NCBI GenBank assembly: GCA_016180645.1
Contig: JACPAV010000015.1
Location: forward strand, 1 to 64,000
Length of the DNA stretch: 64,000 nucleotides
Reading direction: 5' to 3'
DNA from: Nitrospirota bacterium
Lineage (GTDB): Bacteria; JACPQY01
Of this stretch, positions 20,065 to 35,280 are shown piece by piece; the stretch's first letter is position 1, and the number at the start of each line of letters is the position of its first letter. The position numbers and the translations under genes are program-made. The notes under the pieces were generated by a model. It was not told the origin of the DNA. It saw only the letters and a list, made by a program, of their open reading frames with translations, and ran no database searches.

Positions 20065-20757
20065 ATGGGAGCATCATCCAGTGTGGGCCATAGAAAGCGT
20101 CTTCGCCAACGCTTCCTCCGTGTCGGTTTGGCGGGCCTCGCCGACTATGAGTTGCTTGAACTGGTGCTCACCTTTGCGATTCCCCGACGGGATGTGAAGC
20201 CGACCGCGAAGGAGTTGCTTCACCGGTTCGGATCGCTGAAGTCCGTTCTCGACGCATCACCCGATCAATTGGCGGGAATAGAGGGAGTCGGTTCCAGAAC
20301 CGGAGACTACCTTCAGGTGCTTCGCGCCGCGATGCGCCGCTACCACGAGCTTGGAGTGGCGGAGAGCAAAGTGCTCAATTCGCCCAAGGCGGTACTTGAG
20401 CTTTGCCGGTCAAGCCTCGAAGCGGAAAAGAACGAAGTGTTTGAGGTCATCTATGTGTCTTCCAAGAATCGCTACCTTGGCACCGAACGATTTTCCGAGG
20501 GAACCATCGATCGGGCCACCGTCCACCCAAGGAGGATCTTGGAGAGCGCCTTTTCGAGAAAGGCCGCTGCCCTGATCCTGGTCCACAACCACCCGTCCGG
20601 CGATCCGGCGCCCTCCGAGGCGGACAAGCGGTTGACGAAAGCGGTCCTCGATGCGGCTGAGCCGATCGGATTGACCGTTCACGATCACCTCATTATCGGG
20701 AACGGACGCCATTTCAGTTTCCGCTCGGAAGGTCTTCTCGCGGAGATGCGCGGATGA
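20065..20757 (+). CDS. radC: RadC family JAB-domain protein
   Basis: GHRKRLR, HhH region, HNHPSGDPAPSEAD, HDHLII. Confidence 0.95.
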   Translation: MGASSSVGHRKRLRQRFLRVGLAGLADYELLELVLTFAIPRRDVKPTAKELLHRFGSLKSVLDASPDQLAGIEGVGSRTGDYLQVLRAAMRRYHELGVAESKVLNSPKAVLELCRSSLEAEKNEVFEVIYVSSKNRYLGTERFSEGTIDRATVHPRRILESAFSRKAAALILVHNHPSGDPAPSEADKRLTKAVLDAAEPIGLTVHDHLIIGNGRHFSFRSEGLLAEMRG

Positions 20758-23153
20758 GCATGAGAGCCGTCGATTCGGAGGCCGACACCTGCCGGAAATA
20801 CATCGTCCCGAAACTTCACGACGCCGGATGGAACGACGATCTGATCAACGAACAGAGGACGATCACGGACGGGCGAATTGTGGTCGCGGGCGACAAGGTG
20901 CGGCGGAAGAAGTCGGGTCGGGTCGATTATCTCCTCCGCATTGCGCGTGATTTCTCAATGGCCGTCGTTGAGGCCAAAGCATCCTACAAAAAGCCGGCGG
21001 ACGGTCTTCAGCAGGCGAAGGACTACGCCCAAATGCTGGGTCTGAAGTTCGCCTTTTCCAGCAATGGACTGGGCATCGTTGAATTCGATTTCCTCACGGG
21101 CCAGATCGCGGAGCGGGCCGACTTCCCCTCGCCGACGGAACTGTGGACCCGACTGCGCAAGAGTCAGGGGCCGACGGACGACGCAGCCGCAACGCGGCTT
21201 CTAACTCCCGGATCGCGCGTTCAAGGCAAGCAGCCCCGATACTACCAGGAGATCGCGGTGAATCGGGTAGTGCAGGCGATGCTCCAAGGCCAACGTCGGG
21301 TCCTTCTCACCATGGCGACCGGCACGGGAAAAACCTTCGTGGCCTTCCAGATCATTTGGAAACTCTGGAACAGTCGATGGAATGCGCGGGGCGATCACCG
21401 AAAGCCGAGGGTCCTGTATCTCGCGGATCGGAATTTCCTCGTGGATGTGCCCAAAGACCGGGAGTTCGCGGTGTTCGAGGATGCTCGACACAAGATTGAA
21501 TCGGGACAGATCGTGAAATCCCGGGAAATCTACTTTGCGATCTACCAAGCCATCGCCCAAGACGAGCGTCGATCGGGACTATACAAGGAATTCACGCGAG
21601 ATTTCTTCGACCTGATCGTGGTTGACGAGTGCCACCGGGGCAGCGCAAAGGACGAAAGCAACTGGCGCGATATTCTTGAGCACTTCCAGCCGGCTTATCA
21701 GCTTGGAATGACCGCCACTCCGCTCCGGGACGACAACGTGGACACGTATGGATATTTCGAAAATCCGGTCTACACCTACAGCCTCAAACAGGGGATCGAG
21801 GACGGCTTTCTCGCCCCGTACAAGGTTCGACGCATCGTGACCACGGCGGACGCGGTCGGCTGGCGTCCCAAGCCCGGAGAGATCGACCGGGATGGTCGCC
21901 CGATCCCGGACCAAGTCTACCAGACCCCGGAATTCGATAGGCTCCTGGCTCTGAAGCCCCGAACGGAGGCCATCGCCCGCCATCTCACGGATCACCTCCG
22001 GCAGACCAATCGATACGACAAGACCATCGTGTTCTGTGTCGACCAGGAGCACGCGCTGGAAATGATGAAGGCACTGACCAATCTGAACGCCGATTTGGCG
22101 CAAAGGCACGCGGACTACGTTGTGCGAATTACGTCCGACGAGGAGGAAATCGGGCGGGGGCACCTGGATCGATTCAGCGACGTGGAGAAGACAACCCCCG
22201 TGATCGTTACCACTTCCAAATTACTCACCACGGGCGTGGACGTTCCGACGTGCAAGAACATCGTTATCGCCCGGGTCGTGAATTCCATGACCGAGTTCAA
22301 GCAAATCATCGGTCGGGGCACGCGGGTGCGGGACGACTATGGGAAGTACTACTTCACGATTCTTGACTATACGGGGAGCGCGACGCGGCTGTTTGCCGAC
22401 CCGGTTTTCGACGGTGAGCCGGCGCTGCTGACTGAAGAAGGGATCGATGGGCAGGGTCGGGTTACATCCCCGCCGCGTGAGCCGGAACCGGCAGAAGAGT
22501 ACGAATCCCGCGAATCACAAGATGAATTCGTGGATGACTCCCCAACCGACTGCTCCTTTCCGGGACCGGCCGGAGGGGAAAGGCGCAAGTTCCATGTGGA
22601 CCAGGGTTATGTTGAGATCGCAGCCGATGTGGCCTACGAGATGGACGAGCATGGAAATCAACTGAAGGCGACCAAGTACACCGACTACACGATGGAGCAG
22701 GTGAGGTCGATGTTTTCCAGCGCGGCGGAGCTTCGAAGCAAGTGGACCCGCGCGGAGGAGCGGTCGCGGATCATCGACGCGCTGGCGGAGCGCGGAATCA
22801 CAATCGAACGTCTGGCCGAGGTCGCGGGTCAGCACGACGCCGACCCGTTCGATCTGCTATGCAACGTAGCTTACAGCCTTCCACTCCGAAGTCGACGTGA
22901 GCGAGCGGAACAAGTGCGCAAAGGGAATACGGACTTCCTGGGTCGATACACTAAGGAAGCGAGAGAGATACTGAACCTGCTTCTGGACAAGTACATTGAG
23001 CACGGGGTAGCAGAATTCAGAATCCCGGACATCTTGAAAGTCTCGCCCCTTTCGAGCCATGGCAACATCATCGAAATCGCGGCGCGATTTGGGGGGACCG
23101 ACAAACTCCGCGAGGCGGTGGCCGAACTCCAGTCGCTCCTCTACGCCGCCTGA
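20754..23153 (+). CDS. hsdR: Type I restriction enzyme R subunit (EcoEI/EcoAI-like)
   Basis: VEAK nuclease motif, ATGTGKT, DECHRGS, TATP, QIIGRGTR. Confidence 0.95.
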   Translation: MSMRAVDSEADTCRKYIVPKLHDAGWNDDLINEQRTITDGRIVVAGDKVRRKKSGRVDYLLRIARDFSMAVVEAKASYKKPADGLQQAKDYAQMLGLKFAFSSNGLGIVEFDFLTGQIAERADFPSPTELWTRLRKSQGPTDDAAATRLLTPGSRVQGKQPRYYQEIAVNRVVQAMLQGQRRVLLTMATGTGKTFVAFQIIWKLWNSRWNARGDHRKPRVLYLADRNFLVDVPKDREFAVFEDARHKIESGQIVKSREIYFAIYQAIAQDERRSGLYKEFTRDFFDLIVVDECHRGSAKDESNWRDILEHFQPAYQLGMTATPLRDDNVDTYGYFENPVYTYSLKQGIEDGFLAPYKVRRIVTTADAVGWRPKPGEIDRDGRPIPDQVYQTPEFDRLLALKPRTEAIARHLTDHLRQTNRYDKTIVFCVDQEHALEMMKALTNLNADLAQRHADYVVRITSDEEEIGRGHLDRFSDVEKTTPVIVTTSKLLTTGVDVPTCKNIVIARVVNSMTEFKQIIGRGTRVRDDYGKYYFTILDYTGSATRLFADPVFDGEPALLTEEGIDGQGRVTSPPREPEPAEEYESRESQDEFVDDSPTDCSFPGPAGGERRKFHVDQGYVEIAADVAYEMDEHGNQLKATKYTDYTMEQVRSMFSSAAELRSKWTRAEERSRIIDALAERGITIERLAEVAGQHDADPFDLLCNVAYSLPLRSRRERAEQVRKGNTDFLGRYTKEAREILNLLLDKYIEHGVAEFRIPDILKVSPLSSHGNIIEIAARFGGTDKLREAVAELQSLLYAA

Positions 23154-23202
23154 GAAGAGTAATGCACACACCTTACATCTTGTGAAAGGTTCACGTTCAC
23201 TG

Positions 23203-24759
23203 ATGGGCAAACCGAGAGCGACACCTCCCACACCCGTCACCACAGCTCAGCAGCTTGCCTCCATCGTCAAGTCGGCGCGGGACATCATGCGCAAAGACAA
23301 GGGTCTCAACGGCGACCTGGACCGGCTGCCCATGCTCACGTGGATCATGTTCCTGAAATTCCTGGACGACAGCGAGCAGATCCGGGAGGCGGAGGCGAAA
23401 ATGGCGGGCAAACGTTTTCGCCCGGCCGTCGAGCCGCCGTACCGCTGGCGGGATTGGGCGGCCAGGGAAGACGGCGTCACCGGGCAGGAAATGATGGATT
23501 TCATCAACAACGAAGAGCCGATTCGACCCGATGGAACCCGAGGTCCGGGTTTGTTCGCGTATCTTCGCGGACTCCAGGGCGCCAACGGGGGCGACCGGCG
23601 GGACGTGATCGCGACGATCTTCCGCGGAGTGATCAACCGCATGATCAACGGCTATCTCCTTCGGGACATCCTGAACAAGGTGAATCAGATCCATTTCACC
23701 TCCAGCGAGGAAATGCACACTCTCAGTCGCCTGTACGAGTCCTTGCTCAAGGAGATGCGCGACGCGGCGGGCGATTCCGGCGAGTTCTACACTCCGAGGG
23801 CCGTGGTGAAATTCATCGTCCAGGCCGTGAATCCGCGGATGGGGGAGGTGGCGCTCGATCCGGCCGCAGGCACCGGCGGATTCCTCGTGGAATCCTTCGA
23901 GCATCTCAAGACGCAGTGCCGGAAAACGGAGGACTACCGGGTCCTCCAACGAGAAAGCATCTTCGGCATCGAAGCCAAGCCCCTGCCGTATCTGCTCTGC
24001 CAGATGAATCTGCTGCTGCACGGTCTGGAATATCCTCAAATCGACCCCCTGAACGCGCTCCGGTTCCCACTCAGAGAAATGGGGGATCGAGAACGAGTGG
24101 ACGTGATCGTGACGAATCCGCCGTTCGGTGGGGAGGAGGAAAAGGGCATTCTCTCGAACTTTCCGGAGGACCGGAAGACGAGCGAGACGGCGCTCTTGTT
24201 TCTCCAGCTCATCATGAGAAAACTTCGAAGATTGGGGACCGGCTTCAAGGGGGAGGGCGGACGATGCGGAATGATCGTTCCGAACGGGATCCTGTTCGGC
24301 GACGGCGTCTGCGCCCGGATCAAGGAGGAACTGCTCAAGGAGTTCAACCTTCACACGATTGTGCGCCTTCCAAACGGCGTCTTCGCGCCGTACACGAGCA
24401 TTCCCACGAACATTTTGTTTTTCGACCGTTCCGGGCCGACCGAGGATGTTTGGTACTACGAACATCCGCTGCCGGAAGGAAAGAAGAACTACACCAAGAC
24501 GCGGCCCATCCAGTTCGATGAGTTCAAGTCCTGCCTGGAGTGGTGGAGCAAGCGCGAGGAGAGCGACCGCGCATGGAAGGTGTCCGCCGACGAGATCCGA
24601 AAGACCGGATTCAACCTCGACCGAAAGAACCCCCGCGCCCGGCAGGACATCTCCCATCTTCCTCCCGAACAGATTGCCGAAAGCATCCTGGCCAAAGAAC
24701 ACCGCATCGTGCAGATCATGGCGAACATCAAAGGACTTCTCGGAAAACGCGAGGCATGA
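23203..24759 (+). CDS. hsdM: Type I R-M methyltransferase subunit (m6A)
   Basis: GEFYTP, DPAAGTGGF, NPPF; start ATG 23203. Confidence 0.95.
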   Translation: MGKPRATPPTPVTTAQQLASIVKSARDIMRKDKGLNGDLDRLPMLTWIMFLKFLDDSEQIREAEAKMAGKRFRPAVEPPYRWRDWAAREDGVTGQEMMDFINNEEPIRPDGTRGPGLFAYLRGLQGANGGDRRDVIATIFRGVINRMINGYLLRDILNKVNQIHFTSSEEMHTLSRLYESLLKEMRDAAGDSGEFYTPRAVVKFIVQAVNPRMGEVALDPAAGTGGFLVESFEHLKTQCRKTEDYRVLQRESIFGIEAKPLPYLLCQMNLLLHGLEYPQIDPLNALRFPLREMGDRERVDVIVTNPPFGGEEEKGILSNFPEDRKTSETALLFLQLIMRKLRRLGTGFKGEGGRCGMIVPNGILFGDGVCARIKEELLKEFNLHTIVRLPNGVFAPYTSIPTNILFFDRSGPTEDVWYYEHPLPEGKKNYTKTRPIQFDEFKSCLEWWSKREESDRAWKVSADEIRKTGFNLDRKNPRARQDISHLPPEQIAESILAKEHRIVQIMANIKGLLGKREA

Positions 24760-25904
24760 GCGCGGAGTGGCCGGAGATCCCATTGGGGGAGGTTCTGCGA
24801 AGAAGCACGGAGACCATTTCACTACAGCCAGAGAGCGAGTATCGGGAAATTACCGTCAAACTTTGGGGAAAGGGTGTTTGCCAACGGGGGATTATTAGCG
24901 GAGCAAGGTTGGCCGGCGCACGCCGGTTCATCGCCAGAACAGGGCAGTTCATCTTTTCCCGAATCGATGCTCGAAATGGCGCACTCGGCGTCGTGCCGCC
25001 GGAGCTTGATGGCGCGGTGGTTACCAATGACTTTCCAGTGTTTGAGGTCGACCAAGATCATCTATCGACGGCATACATTGGGTGGATGTGTCGGACGGCC
25101 TGGTTTGTCGAGCAATGCCGACGGGCGAGTGAGGGGACAACCAACCGAGTGCGGTTGCAGGAAGACAAGCTCCTTTCCACCGAGATTCCGCTTCCGGCCT
25201 TGCCCGAGCAGCGGTGGATCGTGGCCCGCCTCGACGCCCTCGCCTCCCAAATCTCCGAAGCCCGGGGGCTCCGGCAGCAGGTGGCCGAAGAGGCGGAGGA
25301 GCTTTGCCGCTCAATCCTCAGCCACGACCCGGATGCGCATCAGACGCGCATGGCTGAGCTGGTGCGACTACGGCCCCCCGACGTAACGGTCAGACCGGAT
25401 GGAACGTATCGCTTTGCTGGTGTTTATTGCTTCGGGCGAGGTGTTTTTCCTGGAGGGTGGAAGTCCGGCTCGGAGTTCTCGTACAAGAAACTCACGAGAC
25501 TCAACGTGGGTGATTTCGTATATCCGAAACTGATGGCTTGGGAGGGGGCCTTGGGCATCGTCCCACCAGAATGTGAAGGCTGCGTCGTCTCCACGGAGTT
25601 TCCGGTGTTTGAGGTTCTTGAAGAGCGGGTCCTGCCGGTGGTCTTGGACACGTATTTCAGAACTCCATCCGTTTGGCCGAATCTCTCCGGCGCGAGTACC
25701 GGCACCAATGTGCGGCGCCGCCGCCTCAACCCGGCTGACTTCCTTGACTATTCGATTCCCCTCCCTTCACGGGGGACGCAAGAGCGCCTTCGTGAAGTAC
25801 GGAAGGGGGTCGATTCGCTCAAGCGCCTCCAATCCGAAACCGCCGCCGAGTTGGACGCCCTCCTCCCCTCCCTCCTCGACAAAGCCTTCAAGGGTGAACT
25901 ATAG
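24756..25904 (+). CDS. hsdS: Type I R-M specificity subunit
   Basis: Two TRDs each followed by IPLP..EQ conserved region; ends LLDKAFKGEL; ATGA overlap with hsdM. Confidence 0.93.
   Translation: MSAEWPEIPLGEVLRRSTETISLQPESEYREITVKLWGKGVCQRGIISGARLAGARRFIARTGQFIFSRIDARNGALGVVPPELDGAVVTNDFPVFEVDQDHLSTAYIGWMCRTAWFVEQCRRASEGTTNRVRLQEDKLLSTEIPLPALPEQRWIVARLDALASQISEARGLRQQVAEEAEELCRSILSHDPDAHQTRMAELVRLRPPDVTVRPDGTYRFAGVYCFGRGVFPGGWKSGSEFSYKKLTRLNVGDFVYPKLMAWEGALGIVPPECEGCVVSTEFPVFEVLEERVLPVVLDTYFRTPSVWPNLSGASTGTNVRRRRLNPADFLDYSIPLPSRGTQERLREVRKGVDSLKRLQSETAAELDALLPSLLDKAFKGEL
25830..25904 (+). repeat. hsdS 3'-end repeat, copy R1 (within intact hsdS)
   Basis: caatccgaaacc...aaagccttcaagggtgaactatag; recurs at 28008 and 29855. 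Confidence 0.95.
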
Positions 25905-25954
25905 AGAATCGATTCCCACCAATTGGATTCTGTGATACTTCGACTGGGTAGGCG

Positions 25955-27670
25955 ATGCTGACGAAACTTACGATCTCCAACTTCAAACTCTTCGACAGGG
26001 TGGAGATTGATCTTGCAGAACGGGTGGTCTTTGTCGGACCGAACAACGCCGGCAAGACCTCGGCGTTGCAGGCCCTCGCGCTTTGGAGCATCGGTCTGCG
26101 TCGCTGGGTGGAAAAGCGCGGACGAGGAAACGTTCCGAAGGAGCGCGCGGGTGTGACCATCAACCGGCGAGATCTCATTGCCCTTCCGGTCCCTTCCGCG
26201 AATCTCCTCTGGCGTGATCTTCATGTGCGCGAAAGCGTTCACGAGACGGAGAAGCCCAAAACACGCAACGTTCTGATCGAGATCAGCGTTGCAGGTGTGG
26301 ATGAAGGGAAGGAGTGGACGACGAGTTTCGAATTTGACTACGCGAACGAGGAGTCTTTCTATTGCCGATCGAAGCTGGGTCCGGGGGGATCCAGACTGGA
26401 GATATCGGAAGCGGCGGCAAACGTGGTCTTGGCGTACCTCCCGCCCATGTCAGGCCTGGCCTCCAACGAAACCCGGCTTGACGAAGGTGCAATCGCCGTC
26501 AGGATCGGGGAAGGAAGGACCGCGGAAGTCCTCAGGAACCTCTGCTGGCAGGCACTCCAGGGGAAAGGGGATCAATGGAGAAAGATTGTGGACAGGATGA
26601 AGGCTCTGTTCGGGGTCAGACTGGATGAACCGAAATACGTTAAGGAACGGGGTGAAGTAGTCATGTCTTTCGTAGGGCAAGGGGGAGTGCGTCTGGATTT
26701 GTCCTCCAGTGGTCGAGGCCAGCAACAGACGCTGCTTCTGCTCGCTCATATGGCGGCAAATCCTGGAGCGGTTCTCCTATTGGACGAGCCGGATGCCCAT
26801 CTTGAAATACTCCGGCAGCGTCAGATCTACCAAGTCCTGACGGATACGGCCGCGGAAACGGGCAGCCAAATAATCGCCGCCAGCCACTCGGAAGTCATCT
26901 TGAATGAAGCCGCGGACCGAGATTCTGTCGTCGCATTTGTGGGGGCCCCGCATCGAATCGACGGTCAGGGAAGTCAGGTTTTGAAGGCTCTGAAGGAAAT
27001 CGGCTTCGAGCAGTACGTTCAGGCCGAAGAGACCGGTTGGGTGCTCTACCTGGAAGGGTCTACGGATCTCGCCATTCTCCGCGCATTTGCGGCAAAGCTC
27101 ACTCACCCCGCCAGCGCGATGCTTGAGCGTCCGTTCGTTCACTATGTAGCGAATCAGCCGGGAAAGGCCCGGGACCATTTCTATGGTCTTCGTGAGGCAA
27201 AGCCCGATCTCGTCGGAATAGCATTATACGATCGATTGGATCAAACGCTCTCCAACGACCCCAACCTCGTCCAAACCCAGTGGCGCAGACGCGAGATCGA
27301 GAACTATCTTTGCCAACGCGACACCCTGCTGGCTTGGGCTGAAGCTCAGGGCCGGCCCCAAGGCGATCTGTTCGCGTCCGCTTGGCGATCAAGGATGAAC
27401 GAGTCCATTGATGAGATTGCCTCGGCACTGGCCGCGCTTCGCAAGCCGGCGCCGTGGAGTCCGGATATCAAAGCGAGTGACGACTTTCTTGACCCATTGT
27501 TCAAGAGATTTTACGAAGCTTTGAGCCTGCCCGGTCTCCTGAGGAAAACCGACTACCACACACTCGCGCCCTTCGTGCCCATTGACCAGATTGACAAGGA
27601 AGTTCGGGAAAAGCTCGATACTATTGTCGCGACCGCATTGATAGCTCACCCGCGTGGGGGTCCGGCATAG
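25955..27670 (+). CDS. ABC-type ATPase fused to TOPRIM-like domain (OLD/PARIS-like putative defence nuclease)
   Basis: GPNNAGKTS, SSSGRGQQQ, LLLDEPDAHL, SHS; then YLEGSTD and RREIENYL. Confidence 0.8.
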   Translation: MLTKLTISNFKLFDRVEIDLAERVVFVGPNNAGKTSALQALALWSIGLRRWVEKRGRGNVPKERAGVTINRRDLIALPVPSANLLWRDLHVRESVHETEKPKTRNVLIEISVAGVDEGKEWTTSFEFDYANEESFYCRSKLGPGGSRLEISEAAANVVLAYLPPMSGLASNETRLDEGAIAVRIGEGRTAEVLRNLCWQALQGKGDQWRKIVDRMKALFGVRLDEPKYVKERGEVVMSFVGQGGVRLDLSSSGRGQQQTLLLLAHMAANPGAVLLLDEPDAHLEILRQRQIYQVLTDTAAETGSQIIAASHSEVILNEAADRDSVVAFVGAPHRIDGQGSQVLKALKEIGFEQYVQAEETGWVLYLEGSTDLAILRAFAAKLTHPASAMLERPFVHYVANQPGKARDHFYGLREAKPDLVGIALYDRLDQTLSNDPNLVQTQWRRREIENYLCQRDTLLAWAEAQGRPQGDLFASAWRSRMNESIDEIASALAALRKPAPWSPDIKASDDFLDPLFKRFYEALSLPGLLRKTDYHTLAPFVPIDQIDKEVREKLDTIVATALIAHPRGGPA

Positions 27671-27762
27671 GCGACGCGGTTTAAGACTGGCCGCGAGCAA
27701 GACGTTTGGGGCTTCGCTGGCAGTAGATCCCGCAGGCGAAAAGGCACGGGCGAGAGGACAGG

Positions 27763-27797
27763 AAAAGAAAAAGCCCCGTGATTAACCGGCTCACGGG
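27763..27797 (-). terminator. Intrinsic terminator
   Basis: CCCGTGA-9nt-TCACGGG stem followed on minus strand by GCTTTTTCTTTT. Confidence 0.7.
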
Positions 27798-27856
27798 ACC
27801 AGAAGCCATGTCCAGCGCCATGAGGCGTGGAGTAGCTGCTTGGTTTCCCAAGCATC
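27763..27856 (-). ncRNA. Candidate ~94-nt small RNA
   Basis: Upstream TTGACA-N17-TAGGAT; 5' hairpin UGCUUGG-GAAA-CCAAGCA; middle hairpin; 3' hairpin plus U tract. Confidence 0.55.
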
Positions 27857-27862
27857 AGTACC

Positions 27863-27891
27863 ATCCTAAATGAATTGTCATGACATGTCAA
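27863..27891 (-). promoter_or_regulatory. Sigma70-type promoter overlapped by palindromes
   Basis: TTGACA (27891-27886), 17-nt spacer, TAGGAT (27868-27863); TGTCATGACA and TGACATGTCA palindromes overlap it. Confidence 0.65.
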
Positions 27892-28007
27892 TCATTTCCG
27901 GTCATTTACCGTCATCGCATGCCGGCATGTACCGTGATTGTTTGGGAATCGCAAGCATGACGGGAAGTTCCAGACGGGAACGTAGCACGTGAGGCAGTGG
28001 AATACCT

Positions 28008-28082
28008 CAATCGGAAATCGCAGCCGAACTCGACGCCCTCCTTCCCTCCCTCCTCGACAAAGCCTTCAAAGGTGAATTATAG
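28008..28082 (+). repeat. hsdS 3'-end repeat, copy R2 (orphan)
   Basis: Encodes QSEIAAELDALLPSLLDKAFKGEL*; 66/75 nt identical to R1. Confidence 0.95.
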
Positions 28083-28091
28083 TTTGGTGAA

Positions 28092-29246
28092 ATGAGATTC
28101 ACGGCGCTTCAAATCGGGAACTGGCGAAACTTTGAGAAGGCGGAAGTCGAGCTTCAGGACCGCGTGTTCCTGGAGGGGCCGAACGCCTCCGGAAAATCCA
28201 ATCTTCTCGACGTGTTTCGATTTCTGCATGATGTGGTGGCGGTGGGCGGCGGTTTTCAAGAAGCGGTGAGGCGGCGTGGCGGAGTGTCAAGCTTGAGATC
28301 GCTGGCTGCCAGGCGTTACTCGGACATTGTGATCAAGGCATCCCTGGGAACTGACCGGGACAGAACCGCCTGGGAGTACGAGGTGTGCTTTAATCAGGAC
28401 AATACGGCTCAGCCCGGTACCCCTCGGCCACTGATCAAGAAGGAAACGGTGACGCATCACGGCAAAATTCTGCGGAATCGACCCGACGAATCGGACGCTC
28501 AGGACCCGGAGCGACTGACCCAGACGTATCTTGAGCAGGTTCATGCCAACAAAGACTTCCGGGAAGTAGCCGAGTTTTTCAGCACTGTTCGCTACCTGCA
28601 CATCGTTCCCCAATTGGTCCGTGACCCGGATCGTTCGAAGGGAATGAAAGACGACCCCTACGGAGGTGATTTCATCGAACAGATCGCCCGAACTCAGAAA
28701 CGAACTCGCGAAGCATGGCTCCGGCGCATCCAAGACGCATTGCGCGTCGCGGTGCCGCAACTTAAGGAGTTGACACTCCAGCAGGACTCTCGGGGCGTTC
28801 CGCATCTCCAAGGCAGATACGAGCACTGGCGCCCACAGGGCGCGTGGCAGACGGAAGAGTTGTTCTCTGATGGCACATTGAGGCTCATGGGCCTGCTGTG
28901 GGCCGCTTTGGACGGCAGCGGACCTTTGTTGCTGGAAGAACCTGAAATCTCACTCCATCCTGAGGTCGTCCGATACATTCCACAGATGTTTTTCCGACTA
29001 CAGCGAAAATCCGGACGGCAATTTGTCGTAAGTACGCATTCACTCGAGGTGGTGGGAGACGAGGGTGTCGGTGTGGACGAGGTTCTGCTTCTTCAGCCCG
29101 GATCAGAGGGAACGGTCTTGCTCCCGGCGAGTCGCCTGAAAGATGTCAAGTCGCTCCTCGAAGGCGGACTCTCATTGGCCGAGGCAGTGATGCCTCACAC
29201 ACGCCCTGAAAGAGCGGAGCAGCTCCCTCTTCTTGCCGACGAATAA
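28092..29246 (+). CDS. AAA_21-like ABC-family ATPase
   Basis: GPNASGKSN, SDGTLR, LLEEPEISLHP, STHS. Confidence 0.9.
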   Translation: MRFTALQIGNWRNFEKAEVELQDRVFLEGPNASGKSNLLDVFRFLHDVVAVGGGFQEAVRRRGGVSSLRSLAARRYSDIVIKASLGTDRDRTAWEYEVCFNQDNTAQPGTPRPLIKKETVTHHGKILRNRPDESDAQDPERLTQTYLEQVHANKDFREVAEFFSTVRYLHIVPQLVRDPDRSKGMKDDPYGGDFIEQIARTQKRTREAWLRRIQDALRVAVPQLKELTLQQDSRGVPHLQGRYEHWRPQGAWQTEELFSDGTLRLMGLLWAALDGSGPLLLEEPEISLHPEVVRYIPQMFFRLQRKSGRQFVVSTHSLEVVGDEGVGVDEVLLLQPGSEGTVLLPASRLKDVKSLLEGGLSLAEAVMPHTRPERAEQLPLLADE

Positions 29247-29255
29247 CCTTCTCCC

Positions 29256-29858
29256 TTGCCGGTCGTTTTCTCAGGTGCAGTAGAAGGTGTGTTGGACGAA
29301 GCGGTTCTCCGCCGACTTCTCCTGCATATCGGGGCAGGAATTGGACCCATCCATCGAAGGAACGGCAAGGACTCATTGAGACGCAGGGTATCCGCCTTCA
29401 ACAATGCCGCACGGCACTCCCCCTGGATCGTAGTCGTAGACCTGAACCATGAGGCGCACTGCGCTCCGCCGCTGCGAGCATCTTGGCTGCCAAGCCCGGC
29501 TCCAGGAATGTGTTTCCGTGTCGCCGTTCGAGAAATCGAGTCCTGGATCATGGCGGACCGAGCAAGGCTCGCCCGTTACTTGCGGGTCCAGCAGGCTCGG
29601 GTTCCCTCGGACCCGGAGGCGCTCGATGATCCAAAAACAGCGCTGGTTAACCTGGCTCGTACTTCGACCAAGAAAGCCGTCCGGGAAGACATGGTTCCGA
29701 GGCTGGGAAGCGGCAGGAAGATCGGTCCCGCCTATACATCTCGACTGATCGAATTCGTGTCGGACCAGGAACGCGGATGGCGCCCGGACGTGGCAGCGGC
29801 GGGGTCCGACAGCCTGGGAAGATGTCTCAGGTCACTCAGGAATCTTGTCCATTCGTGA
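29256..29858 (+). CDS. DUF4276-like TOPRIM-fold partner of the ATPase
   Basis: AVEGVLDE, VVVDL, AVREIESWIMAD, DPK motifs; directly follows ATPase. Confidence 0.75.
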   Translation: MPVVFSGAVEGVLDEAVLRRLLLHIGAGIGPIHRRNGKDSLRRRVSAFNNAARHSPWIVVVDLNHEAHCAPPLRASWLPSPAPGMCFRVAVREIESWIMADRARLARYLRVQQARVPSDPEALDDPKTALVNLARTSTKKAVREDMVPRLGSGRKIGPAYTSRLIEFVSDQERGWRPDVAAAGSDSLGRCLRSLRNLVHS

Positions 29859-29923
29859 TCGCCGCCGAACTGGACGCCCTCCTCCCCACCCTCCTCGACA
29901 AGGCCTTCCGGGGTGAATTGTGA
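29855..29923 (+). repeat. hsdS 3'-end repeat, copy R3 (orphan; possible 22-aa ORF)
   Basis: GTG-IAAELDALLPTLLDKAFRGEL-TGA; GTGA overlaps the upstream stop. Confidence 0.93.
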
Positions 29924-29952
29924 TTCTCGAGTCCGTCCGCTAGGATGACCCG

Positions 29953-30705
29953 GTGGCAGTCGAAAGAGAAATCTTCCCCAATGCGCCGATTACAGAAGCA
30001 CTGCTGGATGTTCGCGCCAATCTGCCGACCGGCACATCCATCGAGACTCTCGCCGCCTATCACGATTCCATCAGGGCCCGTTACCCGCTCAAACGGGAAA
30101 GGCAGCGGTGGCAAGTCGGTCATGAATTCAGGCCTGCCGGCCCGCCTTCAATTTTGGGGCCGACGGGGGGGCCGGACGGCTACATCTTTGAATCTCAGGA
30201 CAAGAAACAGGCGGTTCAGGCGCGATTGGATGGTTTCACGTTCAACAGGCTGAAACCGTATCATCAATGGGAATCGCTTCGGGAGGAGGCGATGGATCTC
30301 TGGGGTCAATATGTAGAACTTGCGAAACCCACTGCGATCACGCGGCTTGCGCTACGGTACATCAATCGGATCGAAATTCCCTTGCCCGCAGTTGATCTGA
30401 AAGAATACATCCTTACCGGGCCGGAAGTGGCAAGAGGATTGCCTCAGGGGTTGGCCAATTTCTTCATGCGCGTAATGATCCCCAGCCCGGATTCGAGGGC
30501 GACGGCCCTGGTAACGCTGACGATGGAAGTCCCGACAACGGTGGAAGGTCCTTTGCCTTTCATTTTCGATATCGACGTTTTCCATGAGGAGTCCATGGTA
30601 CCGGGAAGCGGTGGAATGCCGAAAGTGCTTGAAAATCTTCACGAATTCAAGAATAATATCTTCTTCGGAAGCATTACGGATAAGTGCAAGAAGCTTTTTA
30701 GATGA
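29953..30705 (+). CDS. TIGR04255-like protein
   Basis: NAPITEALLDVR, Y..WE, RLALRYINRI, FDID, LHEFKNNIFFGSIT. Confidence 0.8.
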   Translation: MAVEREIFPNAPITEALLDVRANLPTGTSIETLAAYHDSIRARYPLKRERQRWQVGHEFRPAGPPSILGPTGGPDGYIFESQDKKQAVQARLDGFTFNRLKPYHQWESLREEAMDLWGQYVELAKPTAITRLALRYINRIEIPLPAVDLKEYILTGPEVARGLPQGLANFFMRVMIPSPDSRATALVTLTMEVPTTVEGPLPFIFDIDVFHEESMVPGSGGMPKVLENLHEFKNNIFFGSITDKCKKLFR

Positions 30706-31187
30706 ACCTGCAGATTGTGGATTCCTCAGGCCACGCTGGGCGTTCTTGGTACGCCCAACCTCCACATGCCATTCTTGTCCATGATTTCTACAATGCCGGC
30801 GGCGCCACCAGCCTCGAGGCGGGGGCCGTCTCTCTGGCCTTGGAGAGAATCGTCGAACACTATGCCGAACCCATTACGAGGAAGCAGAATCCGATTGAGC
30901 AGCGGTTCCGAACCCTTGCCTCAAAATGGAAAGCTGAGACGAAACATCTCTCCTTCATTTCGGCCATGGCTGTTCATCCAGCTTATCAAGGCATAATCGG
31001 CATGGGACCCGCCGTGGTTCCGTACTTGCTGGATGAGTTGGCCCGAGAGCCTGATCACTGGTTTTGGGCGCTCCGGTCCATCACTGGAGTCGATCCCGTT
31101 CCCCCATCCATGCGCGGGCGAGTCCGGGAGATGGCGGCTGCCTGGCTCGATTGGGGCAAACTTCAGGGATATGGCCAGCCGAGGTGA
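30702..31187 (+). CDS. Conserved hypothetical protein
   Basis: HPAYQGIIGMG, PDHWFWALRSITG; ATGA overlap with upstream gene. Confidence 0.75.
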   Translation: MNLQIVDSSGHAGRSWYAQPPHAILVHDFYNAGGATSLEAGAVSLALERIVEHYAEPITRKQNPIEQRFRTLASKWKAETKHLSFISAMAVHPAYQGIIGMGPAVVPYLLDELAREPDHWFWALRSITGVDPVPPSMRGRVREMAAAWLDWGKLQGYGQPR

Positions 31188-31608
31188 CATCGAACAAATC
31201 TTTCCACGCCTGAGGTCCTCCCGGTACGACGTAACGAGTCCGAGGACGATTGAATACAACTGCGTTGCGTGGGCCGCGGGAGACACTCAGCGACGCTGGG
31301 ACCCCGACCCAGATTACTATTGGCCTGAGGGAATTCCGAGGGAATCAACCCTCGTTGCAGTCCAAGCCGTCTTCCTGAATTTGGGGTTTGAAGCCTGTGA
31401 GTCCCCCGACCTGGAATCGGGCTTCGACAAAGTCGCCATCTTCTCCATGCCTCCAAGAATTCCCACCCATGTGGCACGGCAATTGCCCAATGGGAACTGG
31501 ACAAGCAAGTTGGGGGATCTCGAGGACATTGAACATGAATTGAACGGCGTGGAGGGTGAAGAGTACGGGTCAATTAGCCTCATTCTGAAGCGGCCGAAAT
31601 CCAAGTAG
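31171..31608 (+). CDS. Hypothetical protein with papain-like Cys/His signature
   Basis: YNCVAWA...THVAR...WTSKLG; start ATG 31171. Confidence 0.7.
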   Translation: MASRGDIEQIFPRLRSSRYDVTSPRTIEYNCVAWAAGDTQRRWDPDPDYYWPEGIPRESTLVAVQAVFLNLGFEACESPDLESGFDKVAIFSMPPRIPTHVARQLPNGNWTSKLGDLEDIEHELNGVEGEEYGSISLILKRPKSK

Positions 31609-31715
31609 TTTCCCACTCCCGCCCCTCCTGGCTGTAGCGGCATGAGGCATCGCATGGCGCAGCCGATCGGGCGATGGACTAGCCGAAGCTGTCGCGGTAC
31701 GGGTGACGGGTGGAG

Positions 31716-34700
31716 TCAGTTTTCAGGGGCTGGAGGTTTTTCCGGGAGGAGAGTCCGTCTAATGTTCTTGAGGATTTCGGCGGCTGACTCAGCGGGTTGT
31801 TTGCCTTTGGGAAGCGAAGTGACGAGTTCCAAGGGCGGGGCAAGCTTGAACTCCGCAGGCCGGCTCCGGACCAGTCGAACAAGGCTGTCGGGCGGAACCG
31901 GCGAGGTCGGATCAAAATGCAATGTAAGCGTTGATCCCTTCACCACGAGGCGGACGATTCCGAGACGCTTGAGTTCCAGGCGAAGAATCAGCTCATGAAA
32001 GAATCGCGTCGTGTCCTCCGGGAGGGAGCCGAAGCGGTCGATCATCTCCGACCGGATTTCGTCGAGGACCGACTCGTCCCCGGCCCGGGCGCATTTCCGA
32101 TAGAAGTAGATTCGAAGAGGCATATCCTCCACGTAAAATTCCGGGATGGAGCCGCGGTGGGGCAGGCGGATCTCCGGCTCCATTTCGGGCGTCGTGGGCT
32201 GACCCTTCAGCTCCCGCACGGCCTCCTCGATCAGGCGCAGGTAGGTGTGGAATCCCATTCGGGCGATATGGCCTGACTGGTTCTTCCCCAGGACGTCCCC
32301 CCCCCCGCGGATTTCGAGGTCCCGCTTGGCGAGCCGGTATCCCGATCCGAGGCCGCTCTCCTGAACGGCCTCCAGCCGTTTCACGGCTTCGGGTGTCATC
32401 TGGCCCTCGGGAACGATCAAGTAGGCCTTCGCCTGGATGCCGGAACGGCCGACGCGGCCCCGGAGTTGATAGAGCTGGGCGAGACCGAAGTGATCGGCGT
32501 CGAAAACGATGATCGTGTTGGCATTCGGGATATCGAGGCCCGCCTCGATGATCGACGTGGAGAGGAGCACGTCGATGTCTTTCCGAACGAAATCCATCAG
32601 GACTTTTTCCAGTTCGTCCTCCTTCATTTTTCCGTGGGCCACGCCCAGGCGGGCGGAAGGAACCAGCTTTTCCAGATATTCCGCCGTGGCCCAGATGCCT
32701 CGGATGCGCGGGTGGACGCAGAAGACCTGTCCTTCGCGGTCGAGTTCCTCCTCGATCGCGTGGCGGAGGATGGAATCGTCGTGCGGAGCCACGTAGGTCA
32801 TGATGTCTTTCCGCTCCTGGGGCGGTGTGGCGATGGTGGTGAGGTCGCGAATGCCCAGGAGGGCGAGGTGGAGCGTTCGGGGAATCGGCGTGGCGGTCAG
32901 CGTGAGCACGTCGACCTTCTCGCGGATTTTCTTGATTTTCTCCTTGTGGAGCACGCCGAACCGGTGCTCTTCGTCCACGACGAGCAGGCCCAGATCCGGA
33001 AAGGCGATGTCCGCGCTCAGGAGGCGGTGCGTGCCGATGACCATGTCCACCGCCCCTCCGGAGATCTCGCGAACAATGCGTTTCTGCTCCGCCGGAGGTA
33101 CGAATCGGGACAGCATGCGCACCTTGAGCGGGTAGTCCTTGAGGCGTCGCTCGAACGTTTGGAAATGCTGATAGGCGAGGAGGGTGGTGGGCACGAGAAC
33201 GGCCACTTGTTTCCCGTTCATGGCGACATGGAATGCGGCCCGCAAGGCCACTTCGGTCTTGCCGTAGCCTACGTCGCCGCAAACCAGCCGATCCATGGGT
33301 TGTTGGCGGGATAAGTCCTGGTAGACGGCTTCAATGGCTTCTCTCTGATCCGGTGTTTCCTCGTGCGGGAAGGCGGCCTCGAATTCGCGGAGGTAGTCGT
33401 CGGGGGGCGGGAAGGCGTGGCCGGGGAGACTCTCACGCCGGGCGTAGAGAGCGGCCAGTTCCTTGGCGAGGGCCTTCACCTCTTCTTTAAGTTTCTCTTT
33501 CGAGTTGCGCCAGAACGCGGTGCCGAGCCGGTCCAACTTCGGGGTGATCCCCTCGGAGCCTACGTATTTCTCAAGGAGGCTGATCCGGTCCACCGGCAGG
33601 TAGACGATCGCTTCTTCCGCATACTCGATCTTCAGGTACTGAGCTTCCACGCCGTGGATCGTCAATTCGGCGGCGCCGCGAAAGAGGCCGACTCCGTAGT
33701 CCACGTGGACGACAAAGTCGCCCTCTCGCAGGTCTTCGACGGAGATCTCTTCCCGGGGCTTCTTCGACTTGACCTGTTTTAGTCTCGGTACTGGTGCGCC
33801 GAAGACTTCGTGGTCGGGCACCAAGGCGAGGCGAGCCTCTTCCCAGATGAAGCCTTCGTGGAGGCGACGTCGGATCAGGGTGACGGATGCGGGCTCTTCA
33901 CCGGGGCCGGTCAGGGTGGGCAGAACCTCGAAGGGAATCGATTCCCGCGCGAGGATGCTGCGGAGCCTTTCCTCGCGGGCGTCGTCTTCGACGAAGAAAA
34001 CGCATCGCGTTCCGGAGGCGAGAAGATCCCGGACAAATGGGCCAATGGGGTTCGTGGTCCCTTCCGCTCTGCTCCACGGACGATCCCCTTCGCTACGCTT
34101 CGGGGACGACGACAGGAATCGACAAGAGATCTTCGCGTCGCGAGTTGAGGAATCATGAGGCCTCTGCGTCGTTCCTGCCGGTGAAGCGATCCGGGTCCTG
34201 AACGTTTCGACGGCGTGGCGAAGTTCCAGAAGATCCGAGCAGGTGGTGTGCCACTCGCGGCCCGGATCGGCTCCCGGCCTCAGAACTCGCAGGGGTTCAA
34301 AAATCAGCCGGGTGAATCGGTGGAGGGGCTTGTCCAAATCATTTCCGCGCAATTCGTCTTGCTGTGCATCCTCCCCTGCGCTCCGCTTCGGGGACGACGA
34401 ATGGAATGGCCATGAATGAGTTGCGTCGAATCCATCGATCAGCAGCAGCGTGTTCCCCGGAAGGAGATCCACCACGCGCGCTCCGGCGGGGGATTCCTCG
34501 ACTTGCGGTGGGAAGAGGCTGACCTCATCGAGCTTGCGGATGGATCTCTGAGTTTCCGAGTCGAATTCGCGGAGATCGTCCACGGCGTCGCCCGCCAGTT
34601 CGACCCGGACCGGCTGTGAGGAGAGCGGGGGAAAGATATCCACGACGAACCCGCGAACCGCGTAGTCACCACGACGCTCCACGAGCGTTTTCCGGACATA

Positions 34701-35189
34701 GCCGTGGTCTTCCAGGAAGCGCGCGAGTTCTTCGCGATCGGCCACTCCGCCGCGCCGGATGAGGTAGGTGTTTCGGATGAACCAGGAGGGTTCGGGAGGA
34801 CGCCAGGCGAGGGCTTCTTTCGACAGGACCCAAAGGGGAGGAGGATCCGAGGGTTGGACGAGAAGGCGGAGACCCAGTAGATCGAGGCCCGTTCGGTCGC
34901 CGATATCCGAGAGCCGGCGACTGACTCGGGCGGGCGATTCTTCTTCATGGCCCGGAAATGTGGCCAGCGGTGTGGACGAGCCGGCCAGGAGAGTTTGAAG
35001 GTCTCCCAGCCAGCGGGAGACCAGTGGCGGATTCGCCACCAGCACGGCGATCGGTCGTCCAGCCAGTTGCGCCAGGCGGGCAGTAAGGTACGCGCCGGCG
35101 CTTCCCTTGAGTCCGGTGAGGCGGCCATGGCGACCTTTGTCGAATTCCCCTGCGCGGAGCGCGGCGATGAGTTCATCCAGTACCGGCAT
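31716..35189 (-). CDS. mfd: Transcription-repair coupling factor
   Basis: GDYAVRG, VVHVDYGVG, GDVGYGKTE, DEEHRFG, TATPIPRT, QLRGRVGRS, TRCF C-terminus. Confidence 0.96.
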   Translation of the reverse strand: MPVLDELIAALRAGEFDKGRHGRLTGLKGSAGAYLTARLAQLAGRPIAVLVANPPLVSRWLGDLQTLLAGSSTPLATFPGHEEESPARVSRRLSDIGDRTGLDLLGLRLLVQPSDPPPLWVLSKEALAWRPPEPSWFIRNTYLIRRGGVADREELARFLEDHGYVRKTLVERRGDYAVRGFVVDIFPPLSSQPVRVELAGDAVDDLREFDSETQRSIRKLDEVSLFPPQVEESPAGARVVDLLPGNTLLLIDGFDATHSWPFHSSSPKRSAGEDAQQDELRGNDLDKPLHRFTRLIFEPLRVLRPGADPGREWHTTCSDLLELRHAVETFRTRIASPAGTTQRPHDSSTRDAKISCRFLSSSPKRSEGDRPWSRAEGTTNPIGPFVRDLLASGTRCVFFVEDDAREERLRSILARESIPFEVLPTLTGPGEEPASVTLIRRRLHEGFIWEEARLALVPDHEVFGAPVPRLKQVKSKKPREEISVEDLREGDFVVHVDYGVGLFRGAAELTIHGVEAQYLKIEYAEEAIVYLPVDRISLLEKYVGSEGITPKLDRLGTAFWRNSKEKLKEEVKALAKELAALYARRESLPGHAFPPPDDYLREFEAAFPHEETPDQREAIEAVYQDLSRQQPMDRLVCGDVGYGKTEVALRAAFHVAMNGKQVAVLVPTTLLAYQHFQTFERRLKDYPLKVRMLSRFVPPAEQKRIVREISGGAVDMVIGTHRLLSADIAFPDLGLLVVDEEHRFGVLHKEKIKKIREKVDVLTLTATPIPRTLHLALLGIRDLTTIATPPQERKDIMTYVAPHDDSILRHAIEEELDREGQVFCVHPRIRGIWATAEYLEKLVPSARLGVAHGKMKEDELEKVLMDFVRKDIDVLLSTSIIEAGLDIPNANTIIVFDADHFGLAQLYQLRGRVGRSGIQAKAYLIVPEGQMTPEAVKRLEAVQESGLGSGYRLAKRDLEIRGGGDVLGKNQSGHIARMGFHTYLRLIEEAVRELKGQPTTPEMEPEIRLPHRGSIPEFYVEDMPLRIYFYRKCARAGDESVLDEIRSEMIDRFGSLPEDTTRFFHELILRLELKRLGIVRLVVKGSTLTLHFDPTSPVPPDSLVRLVRSRPAEFKLAPPLELVTSLPKGKQPAESAAEILKNIRRTLLPEKPPAPEN
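34085..34400. repeat. Two copies (34085-34112, 34373-34400) of a 28-bp element also at 17083-17110 in thiD
   Basis: Consensus ccccTNcgctNcgcttcgRggacgRcga. Confidence 0.8.
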
Positions 35190-35280
35190 GCGCGGGATTG
35201 TATCGGAGCGGATCGAAGAAACCAGAGGCGGCGGATCCTCACACATTCGTGACTTGACAAGTCCACATTAAGGCGGTATT

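Follow-up and report, generated by a model that had tools for sequence, protein, structure and literature searches.

In pseudo-staphylococcal cassette chromosome (SCC) arrays at rlmH/orfX, and in cis-mobilizable elements (CIMEs) and integrative and conjugative elements (ICE) at the 3' end of fda, copies of the 3' end of the target gene punctuate tandem elements. Phase-variable hsdS loci (for example SpnD39III/ivr) hold inverted partial copies of hsdS with recognition domains, which switch specificity, often with a recombinase. In Rhs arrays, according to the displacement sections of PMC2935791, incoming modules shunt the resident module downstream together with a conserved piece of variable length, and homologous recombination via circles was proposed there for rhs displacement (Jackson et al. 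2009). Here we describe an array of cargo genes punctuated by copies of the 3' end of hsdS, the specificity gene of a type I restriction-modification operon, in a Nitrospirota bacterium (JACPQY01; assembly GCA_016180645.1). The window, that is, the whole stretch of DNA analyzed, comprises 64,000 nucleotides (contig JACPAV010000015.1, positions 1 to 64,000 of the forward strand). We read the locus, with a probability of roughly 0.58, as a 3' end displacement array behind the type I operon, built by host recombination with no integrase. Displacement arrays and the embedding of defence modules are already known; what is new is a restriction specificity gene end that punctuates stacked defence cassettes. 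A search of the full-text literature, with supplements outside its reach, found no description of hsdS-tail arrays. The features of the array are, in their order along the window:

24756..25904, + strand: hsdS, intact and two-domain (PADLOC Specificity_I, 1e-85, profile positions 3-380 of 382)
25830..25904, + strand: R1, 3' terminus of the live hsdS, its final 24 codons and TAG (repeat search, BLAST)
25955..27670, + strand: block 1, 571-aa ABC-type ATPase (Pfam AAA_21, 4e-20, and AAA_15, 1e-18; PADLOC NsnB, AriA, AriAB)
27671..28007, no strand: spacer of 337 nt between block 1 and R2 (no hsdR, hsdM or hsdS remnant detected)
28008..28082, + strand: R2, orphan hsdS tail, 24 codons and TAG (in-frame stop upstream at 27990, no start codon)
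28092..29246, + strand: block 2a, HEC-01A, ABC-type ATPase (PADLOC PDLC04180, 1.9e-156, full length)
29256..29858, + strand: block 2b, HEC-01B, DUF4276-like partner (PADLOC PDLC04194, 2.4e-61)
29849..29923, + strand: R3, orphan hsdS tail (clearly homologous from 29858 on, 21 codons and TGA)
29953..30705, + strand: block 3a, TIGR04255-family protein (NCBIfam TIGR04255, 3.4e-41)
30702..31187, + strand: block 3b, 161-aa open reading frame (ORF; no match in Pfam, PADLOC or NCBIfam)
31033..31608, + strand: block 3c, DUF7689 protein (Pfam DUF7689, 2.7e-38, residues 67-185 of the longest ORF)

The repeat search returned a single family of three direct 75-nt copies, R2 being 88% and R3 80% identical to R1, with spacings of 2178 nt (R1 to R2) and 1841 nt (R2 to R3). 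A BLAST search with R1 found only these three copies in the 4.7-Mb genome (E values of 4e-33, 5e-21 and 7e-16; next match at 0.025). Searching with a degenerate pattern of the final 8 codons and the stop gave three forward and no reverse matches, and the reversed-pattern control gave none. In agreement with these searches, the initial annotation, made from the sequence alone, had described direct repeats of the last 22-25 hsdS codons in three places. Its third copy stands, and only the left edge needs care: noted as 29855-29923, the copy is clearly homologous only once 29858 is reached, where the HEC-01B stop has its last base, and the preceding three codons are doubtful. The homology starts of R2 and R3 differ by about 3 codons at most. 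The longest identical runs between the window tails measure 26, 17 and 13 nt, and a 13-nt run is common to all three.

The differences among the copies carry the signature of coding sequence. Codon counts confirm that R1 and R2 differ at 8 codons, of which 7 are synonymous and one is T>I, and that R3 differs from R1 by the same I and by the conservative S>T and K>R, with the stop kept as TGA in place of TAG. Mostly synonymous changes between R1 and R2, together with conservative ones and a retained stop in R3, argue that the copies diverged while coding. The 7:1 synonymous ratio supports the earlier proposal that they derive from different functional hsdS alleles and not from neutral decay of one duplicate. 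R2 is untranslated: it lacks a start codon, and an in-frame stop precedes it at 27990. Both R2 and R3 appear to be what remains, untranslated, of two further hsdS alleles belonging to the same family. At 29855-29923 a 22-codon frame encodes exactly the R3 peptide; it begins with a GTG that shares bases with the HEC-01B stop (GTGA), and translation of R3 as a free copy of the HsdS C-terminal helix is in principle possible.

The tails were expected 9-50 nt upstream of different cargo, and the gaps from stop to next start after R1, R2 and R3 are indeed 50, 9 and 29 nt. The left joints are irregular, with 337 nt ahead of R2 and 0 nt ahead of R3. Since the spacing is tight on the right and irregular on the left, the tail with the cargo that follows it is taken as the old unit and the left joint as the new one. 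No inverted repeats within the tails were reported (seed 9, minimum length 20; no attC-specific model applied).

Set beside the described systems, the locus resembles SCC/CIME accretion in that copies of the 3' end of a target gene stand between tandem elements, some of them recombinase-less. The SCC/CIME repeats are short fixed att cores with a known site-specific recombinase, whereas the hsdS repeat varies in length and has none linked to it; no fixed core with a cognate recombinase was found in the window. With phase-variable hsdS loci it shares partial hsdS copies beside a live hsdS and conserved regions in common, but the copies in the window are direct, span 22-25 codons, carry no recognition domain and separate unrelated genes. 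As in integrons, the array is one-directional and defence-rich, with promoter-less, co-oriented cassettes, a repeated element and the newest cassette probably nearest the anchor gene. Unlike integrons, it has no intI on the contig, what repeats is the end of a coding gene and apparently no attC hairpin, and the repeat boundaries vary.

From the displacement sections of PMC2935791, Rhs "C-terminal displacement" arrays share with this locus an intact gene followed by co-oriented fragments (here all on the + strand) that repeat its conserved segment. These arrays and the related orphan contact-dependent inhibition (CDI)/Rhs modules also share with it variable-length fragments of the same clade on older modules, and the lack of a dedicated recombinase. 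Unlike Rhs as presented there, the hsdS repeat comes from the very 3' terminus of the gene, what has been displaced is a downstream gene or operon in its own right and not an alternative C-terminal domain of one protein, and the old recognition domains are lost, not archived. There is likewise a parallel with the "guilt by embedding" of Payne et al. (bioRxiv 10.1101/2024.01.29.577857), in which small defence modules accompany operons of the restriction type; HEC-01, one such module, makes up block 2. Unlike the embedded systems in the relevant parts of that preprint, all three blocks of the window come after hsdS, the last gene of the operon, and none is nested between type I genes. Those same parts are silent on how such modules insert and on repeated ends of genes.

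Displacement is seen best in three Nitrospirales genomes, G041, G098 and G112 (loci L149, L157 and L163; G and L are our working handles for genomes and loci). They share hsdR, two embedded genes and hsdM at 82-88% nucleotide identity, with hsdS recognition domains unrelated to one another. The only tail of G112 is that of the intact hsdS, and a TIGR04255 gene 233 nt behind it is 38% identical to block 3a. In G041 the live tail, 74.7% like that of G112, is followed by an OLD/GajA gene and then by an orphan of about 21 codons. This orphan is 94.5% identical to the G112 live tail, a better match than to the live tail of G041 itself, and it is fused (ATGA) to a DUF6883 gene that G098 has as well. 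The G041 live tail departs from the ancestral type over its entire length and is not a 5'/3' hybrid. In G098 the live tail is followed by a KwaB-like gene and this in turn by a shorter orphan in decay (about 33 nt), which precedes remnants of the same DUF6883/DUF4926 genes. One ancestral tail was thus displaced twice, independently, by different cargo at different breakpoints, and in both G041 and G098 the old tail kept its attachment to the old downstream gene. An old tail on the old module, with a new module beside the intact gene, was thus found in the trio and not in the window. The two embedded genes of the trio, between hsdR and hsdM, are a 205-aa ORF and an AbiEii gene.

The same layout recurs well beyond these genomes. 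A scan for the tail pattern in one genome per species, with 80 loci analyzed among at least 123 stretches, gave 81 tails: 47 lie in an ORF of at least 300 aa (live hsdS), 8 are cut by the end of the locus, and 26 lie in an ORF below 300 aa, 20 of these in one of 75 aa or less. On a re-scan of the 79 genomes behind the listed loci, with one mismatch allowed, 2-8 same-strand tails within 5 kb were found in 11 genomes among the matches listed (G041, G044, G053, G064, G075, G082, G085, G088, G089, G091 and G098); the reversed-pattern control matched once across all 79. The unpublished G096 adds one single-tail row to the counts and nothing more. In an even sample of 401 Chloroflexota, 8 genomes bear tails and 3 of them have clustered tails (G075, G312 and G162). 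As G075 was the chosen centre of this sample, whereas G312 and G162 are independent, the figure without the centre is 2 of 7 positives. Both counts bear out the expectation of the initial annotation that multi-tail loci with variable cargo exist elsewhere.

Genomes labelled Chloroflexota/Anaerolineae, Nitrospirales, Acidobacteriota, Planctomycetales and Verrucomicrobiota show the layout, in addition to the present candidate phylum. The orphans share the tail end ...LP.(I/L/V)LDKAF(K/R)GEL, and this motif is kept across phyla with different codons, for example those of the GACAAAGCC and GATAGGGCG types. Homology of the orphans sets in at anything from 8 to 58 residues ahead of the stop; these starts come from local alignments and are approximate, and three low-scoring rows are probably chance motif matches. 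A fixed crossover point was rejected on account of this spread.

G075 is the clearest case. On one long contig, hsdR, a gene of unknown function, hsdM and an intact hsdS come first, and 6 further tails follow; the ORFs between the tails include a REC-LuxR-TIR protein, and a DUF559 nuclease follows the last tail. G064 packs 8 or 9 tails into 8 kb, and its cargo includes a STAND NTPase and two pentapeptide-TIR proteins; in G044 the ends of contigs hold two four-tail arrays, whose cargo is of the PIN-HNH and HEPN-like (PDC-S64) kinds. A Hypoth_Ymh/PD-Lambda-3_B-like protein stands between the live tail and the orphan of G089. In G085 there are two orphan tails with no live hsdS in view, the second of them after a PDC-S02 nuclease, and G053 has hsdM fragments near degraded tails. 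Across the arrays, the cargo between tails is defence-like (TIR, STAND NTPase, PIN-HNH, DUF559, GajA/Old, KwaB, HEPN, PDC-S02) and co-oriented with the tails, and many of its ORFs match neither Pfam nor PADLOC.

Several smaller features accompany these loci. A mini-ORF of about 45-50 codons, in which an Arg/Pro-rich start (..NRPRI.PRI.E.L) is joined to the HsdS tail, recurs at different array positions in four Anaerolineae-type genomes: L153 (G075), L154 and L155 (G064), L148 (G044) and L244 (G312). Its DNA holds three ACGAAT repeats, and in G075 its ATG overlaps the hsdS stop. In tails 4-7 of L153, small GC-rich palindrome-like insertions (CCCCCTACG...GGGG type) interrupt several orphans, at two different positions and in pairs of neighbouring tails. 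Single short orphans occur directly behind genes other than an hsdS of this family: after hsdR in a type I system of different gene order, adjoined by insertion sequence (IS) IS21 (G042, L150), after an 857-aa methylase (G043, L151) and after an AbiEii gene with IS110 nearby (G045, L152). In G089 (L158) an IS200-type Y1 transposase lies between hsdR and hsdM.

To account for the array we propose that a foreign hsdS 3' end, in the simplest case a whole foreign hsdS, would have recombined into the operon together with its trailing defence gene. This recombination would be anchored in the conserved type I genes, with the right breakpoint within the ~55 conserved codons that end the resident hsdS, and its enzymes would be host homologous or illegitimate recombination functions. 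The resident tail and its cargo would be pushed downstream and not lost, and repeated rounds would build the order hsdS-R1-block 1, R2-block 2, R3-block 3, with the newest unit beside hsdS. R2 and R3 would each still be joined to the defence genes that once trailed that allele (9 and 29 nt). The co-oriented repeats would then permit block loss or re-mobilisation by homologous recombination. The data show the repeats themselves, their orphan status, their origin in selected alleles, the recurrence across phyla, the two independent displacements of one ancestral tail, the variable breakpoints and the recombinase-free contig; we infer the recombination step, the linear or circular form of the incoming DNA and the order of arrival. 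Linear arrival of hsdS with its neighbour would explain why relatives differ in recognition domains and cargo together. We favor recombination within a conserved stretch over a site-specific enzyme because the homology starts vary, the motif is kept across different codons, no recombinase is linked and no inverted repeats were reported in the tails.

A number of observations weigh against this displacement. The Anaerolineae arrays have near-identical tails (~90-97%) and "empty" units of 140-200 nt, and a tail-to-tail unit is common to G044, G064 and G075 (70-87%) with unrelated cargo on its flanks; no cargo is shared among these arrays, which have only tails and tail-to-tail units in common. 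These features look more active than passive scarring. If right-hand breakpoints fell at random in a 1.2-kb hsdS, long remnants should be frequent, yet most leftovers are shorter than 60 codons; displacement therefore needs either selection against recognition-domain fragments, which we infer, or a real role for tail homology. The tail motif was found beside none of the 80 closest metagenome HEC-01A loci (59-69% identity), and neither HsdS (Methylase_S) nor HsdM-type N6_Mtase occurs among 89 neighbouring ORFs of HEC-01 (89 of the 165 listed). Eight of 27 long-flank HEC-01 loci sit between an Hma-type helicase and a DUF1156 methylase, and the others among housekeeping genes; the metagenome loci examined gave no hsdS-adjoining HEC-01 donor. 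For block 3, the TIGR04255 gene of G092 stands on the opposite strand to hsdS, and the companions of block 3a have no counterpart beside it. Finally, the phylum, with 2 genomes in the collection, offers no close relative for tracing the past of the locus in this lineage.

The initial annotation had also expected cargo homologues directly behind hsdS. This holds for block 3a, by the TIGR04255 gene of G112, and fails for block 2 among the 80 HEC-01A loci. As an observation in its own right, HEC-01AB (L164-L243) is a tight two-gene module found in varied settings: beside FtsZ, EF-G, UvrC and transporters and in Hma systems.

The short leftovers, the "empty" units, the near-identical tails and the shared Anaerolineae unit make us lean toward active tail homology. 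The uniformly foreign live tail of G041 and the 13-26 nt identical runs in the window make us lean toward frozen past events. The corresponding rival, which is the model of the initial annotation, is an active, integron-like capture without integrase, in which a tail and its cargo circle out by homologous recombination between two tails, pass to another cell and re-insert by a single crossover into the resident hsdS tail, so that the tails would serve as docking sites and be more than scars; we consider it possible, if rather doubtful. It would yield the same final architecture as displacement, and it would accommodate the 4-8 near-identical tails, the "empty" units and the common unit of the Anaerolineae, the orphan-only arrays with no adjoining hsdS (G312, G085), and the short leftovers within the conserved region, which fit homology-guided events. 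A two-step circular model was also proposed for rhs tips in the displacement sections of PMC2935791. The runs of 26, 17 and 13 nt in the window are however a poor RecA-type substrate now, and the live tail of G041 is foreign throughout and no 5'/3' hybrid. Nor is there a tail beside the 80 closest HEC-01 relatives, and the model leaves the origin of the first duplication unexplained; the lack of a circle or deletion joint in metagenome contigs (below) counts weakly, as these lose rare variants. We entertain, as a tentative and minority view, that the last ~50 codons of one widespread hsdS family form an integrase-free docking site, with units shared across phyla. In this docking, which we hold to be conceivable and still on the improbable side, units of a tail and a defence gene would excise and re-insert by homologous recombination and form integron-like banks of up to 8-9 cassettes (Anaerolineae).

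Co-oriented copies of a gene 3' end are also the hallmark of integrases that target gene ends, and the tails could be att sites of non-autonomous elements aimed at the hsdS 3' end, served by an integrase in trans. The genome has 16 tyrosine- and 2 serine-recombinase matches elsewhere, and a 13-nt run is shared by all three window tails. We nevertheless find such accretion unlikely: the contig is free of recombinases; the Pfam-scanned ORFs beside the arrays of other genomes have no integrase or resolvase match; mobile-element matches are limited to IS21 (G042), IS110 (G045) and IS200 (G089), at single orphans or in the operon; and the "empty" units of 140-200 nt carry no gene. The left homology edge, moreover, varies over 8-58 residues, the protein motif is followed across phyla with different codons, against a single DNA site, and no inverted repeat was found in the tails. 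It is very unlikely that three complete type I operons, each trailed by a defence gene of its own, were stacked here and that the second and third were later deleted except for their hsdS ends. Defence islands do stack restriction-modification systems, and hsdM fragments lie near degraded tails in some loci (G053), but no trace of hsdR, hsdM or the hsdS body was detected between the blocks of the window. R3 begins on the HEC-01B stop, the R2 and R3 starts agree within ~3 codons, and it would take a coincidence for two independent deletions of ~5 kb to end at one position. Least credible of all is a local tandem duplication of the hsdS end with neutral decay and later insertion of cargo, even though all the repeats lie at a single locus, as direct copies in the same orientation. 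Synonymous changes at 7 of 8 codons, against the ~1/4-1/3 expected, are improbable under neutral decay (estimated at ~1e-3), and the G041 orphan is closer to the G112 live tail (94.5%) than to its own.

The cargo blocks were examined individually. Block 1 had been annotated as ATPase-TOPRIM. The ATPase part holds; the TOPRIM part is unconfirmed, its basis being a match of residues 266-454 to the PADLOC fused PARIS AriAB (1.4e-16, a weak resemblance) and an EG.TD-like motif which, like a D.LD motif, was read by eye only. The C-terminal 241 aa (residues 331-571) match no Pfam or PADLOC family, and a comparison with the PDB gave ATPase matches only, with an OLD-family chain aligned to residues 1-43. 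That block 1 is the same cassette as the OLD gene of G041 was rejected, for only the ATPase motifs align. In block 2, the annotated ATPase and DUF4276-like pair is indeed HEC-01A and HEC-01B of PADLOC, the two genes required for HEC-01 there, separated by 9 nt. The HEC-01B C-terminus is native to within ~1 codon, as judged from homologues. In the HEC-01 passages of the preprint, HEC-01B is described as TOPRIM-like and the system gave no protection against the phages tested by the authors (bioRxiv 10.1101/2024.01.29.577857). The "TIGR04255-like triplet" of block 3 stands for its first gene, which has no match among PDB sequences; the middle gene is without match and the third is DUF7689, for which a start near 31189 is the probable true one. 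A conserved triplet was rejected for block 3, the G092 companions being unrelated to 30702-31187 and 31189-31608.

Metagenome contigs were available from 4 runs of one study, 3 of which may be of the source sample; contigs drop rare variants. They reproduce the assembled order, with single contigs covering 25961-30261 and 26434-32000. With that limit on rare variants, the contigs of the 4 runs contain no tail-to-tail deletion or circle joint, nor the hybrid R1/R2 or R2/R3 joints that excision between tails would leave. A joint of 27843 to 25825 was rejected as a block 1 circle, as the 552-nt contig that holds it is only 95% alike over 76 nt; this contig appears to come from another strain or organism.

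The type I operon and the core genes on either side of the array are:

18533..19999, + strand: gltX, glutamyl-tRNA synthetase, left core flank (Pfam tRNA-synt_1c, 7e-101)
20065..20757, + strand: radC-like JAB-domain gene, which opens the island (Pfam RadC, 5e-40; stop overlaps the hsdR start)
20754..23153, + strand: hsdR, EcoEI/type IB-like restriction subunit (PADLOC REase_I, 3e-224, full length; ResIII, 6e-38; EcoEI_R_C, 4e-33)
23059..24759 (longest ORF), + strand: hsdM, N6-adenine methyltransferase (PADLOC MTase_I, 1e-191; Pfam N6_Mtase, HsdM_N)
31716..35246, - strand: mfd, right core flank, convergent with the island (Pfam TRCF, CarD_TRCF_RID, UvrB_inter; 72% nucleotide identity to G001)

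HsdR with EcoEI_R_C, HsdM and a full-length HsdS thus stand in one operon, as in a restriction-modification system of type I. The radC-like gene is co-operonic with hsdR (ATGA overlap), and the hsdS ATG overlaps the hsdM stop (ATGA). The true start of hsdM is probably later than 23059, as the profile match begins at residue 65. In G001, the sole genome of the same family in the collection (where the phylum has 2 genomes, and the other 39 relatives are related at domain level only), gltX and mfd are ~230 nt apart and the 11.6 kb of DNA from radC to DUF7689 is absent; because of this short gap we take the 11.6 kb as an accessory insert. The third-codon-position GC content (GC3) is 0.61-0.65 for the cargo versus 0.73-0.78 for gltX, hsdM and mfd. 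Profile searches of the genome (PF00589, PF00239) found no tyrosine or serine recombinase on the contig of the window, among a genome total of 16 Phage_integrase (PF00589) and 2 Resolvase (PF00239) matches, so that the claim of an integrase-free window extends to the whole contig. The repeat listing further includes a ten-C run at 32290-32314 (ten G on the coding strand) within the intact mfd frame.

The 337-nt spacer ahead of R2 has no second copy in the genome and matches neither the window nor any of the fetched loci (blastn, tblastx). Against Rfam it gives no family at E of 1 or below, except two chance-level matches under the gathering scores. It contains one candidate feature:

27760..27860, - strand: candidate small RNA, ~95 nt (promoter-like site, three hairpins, fold test)

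The promoter-like site (TTGACA-17-TAGGAT, 27891-27863) matches 10 of 12 positions, and the last of the three hairpins is a 10-bp stem followed by a U-run. The predicted fold has -43.6 kcal/mol and a z score of -4.1, with none of 200 shuffles as stable, and the candidate matches no Rfam family. Its positions 27768-27843 (76 nt) recur, 95% alike, in the 552-nt metagenome contig mentioned above, where different DNA lies upstream and the small-RNA piece directly precedes another hsdS-tail start.

Signal-like sequences were also noted in the tails. In R2 (28054-28083) the L-D-K codons read TCGACA and the stop region, 18 nt on, reads TATAGT, which ends 8 nt before the HEC-01A ATG; in G041 (L149 10732-10761) the K-G-E codons read AAAGGAGAG, and the TGA of the orphan overlaps the ATG of the following gene. 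Both are consensus matches only. From the -35/-10-like pair in R2 and the AAGGAG before the overlapping ATG in G041, the tail might supply expression signals to the cargo.

If the docking reading were true, orphan tails would mark the boundaries of defence cassettes, many of them encoding proteins of no known family. If the displacement reading is true, the tails are a cheap sequence marker for new defence genes, as many of the inter-tail ORFs have no known family, and blocks flanked by direct repeats are predicted to be unstable. Dead hsdS tails would then be a fossil record of past alleles and the punctuation between cassettes, and the clustering of defence genes would be explained without the enzyme of a mobile element. 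Type I operons would grow their own defence islands, with each new specificity gene bringing its neighbour and pushing the old one downstream.

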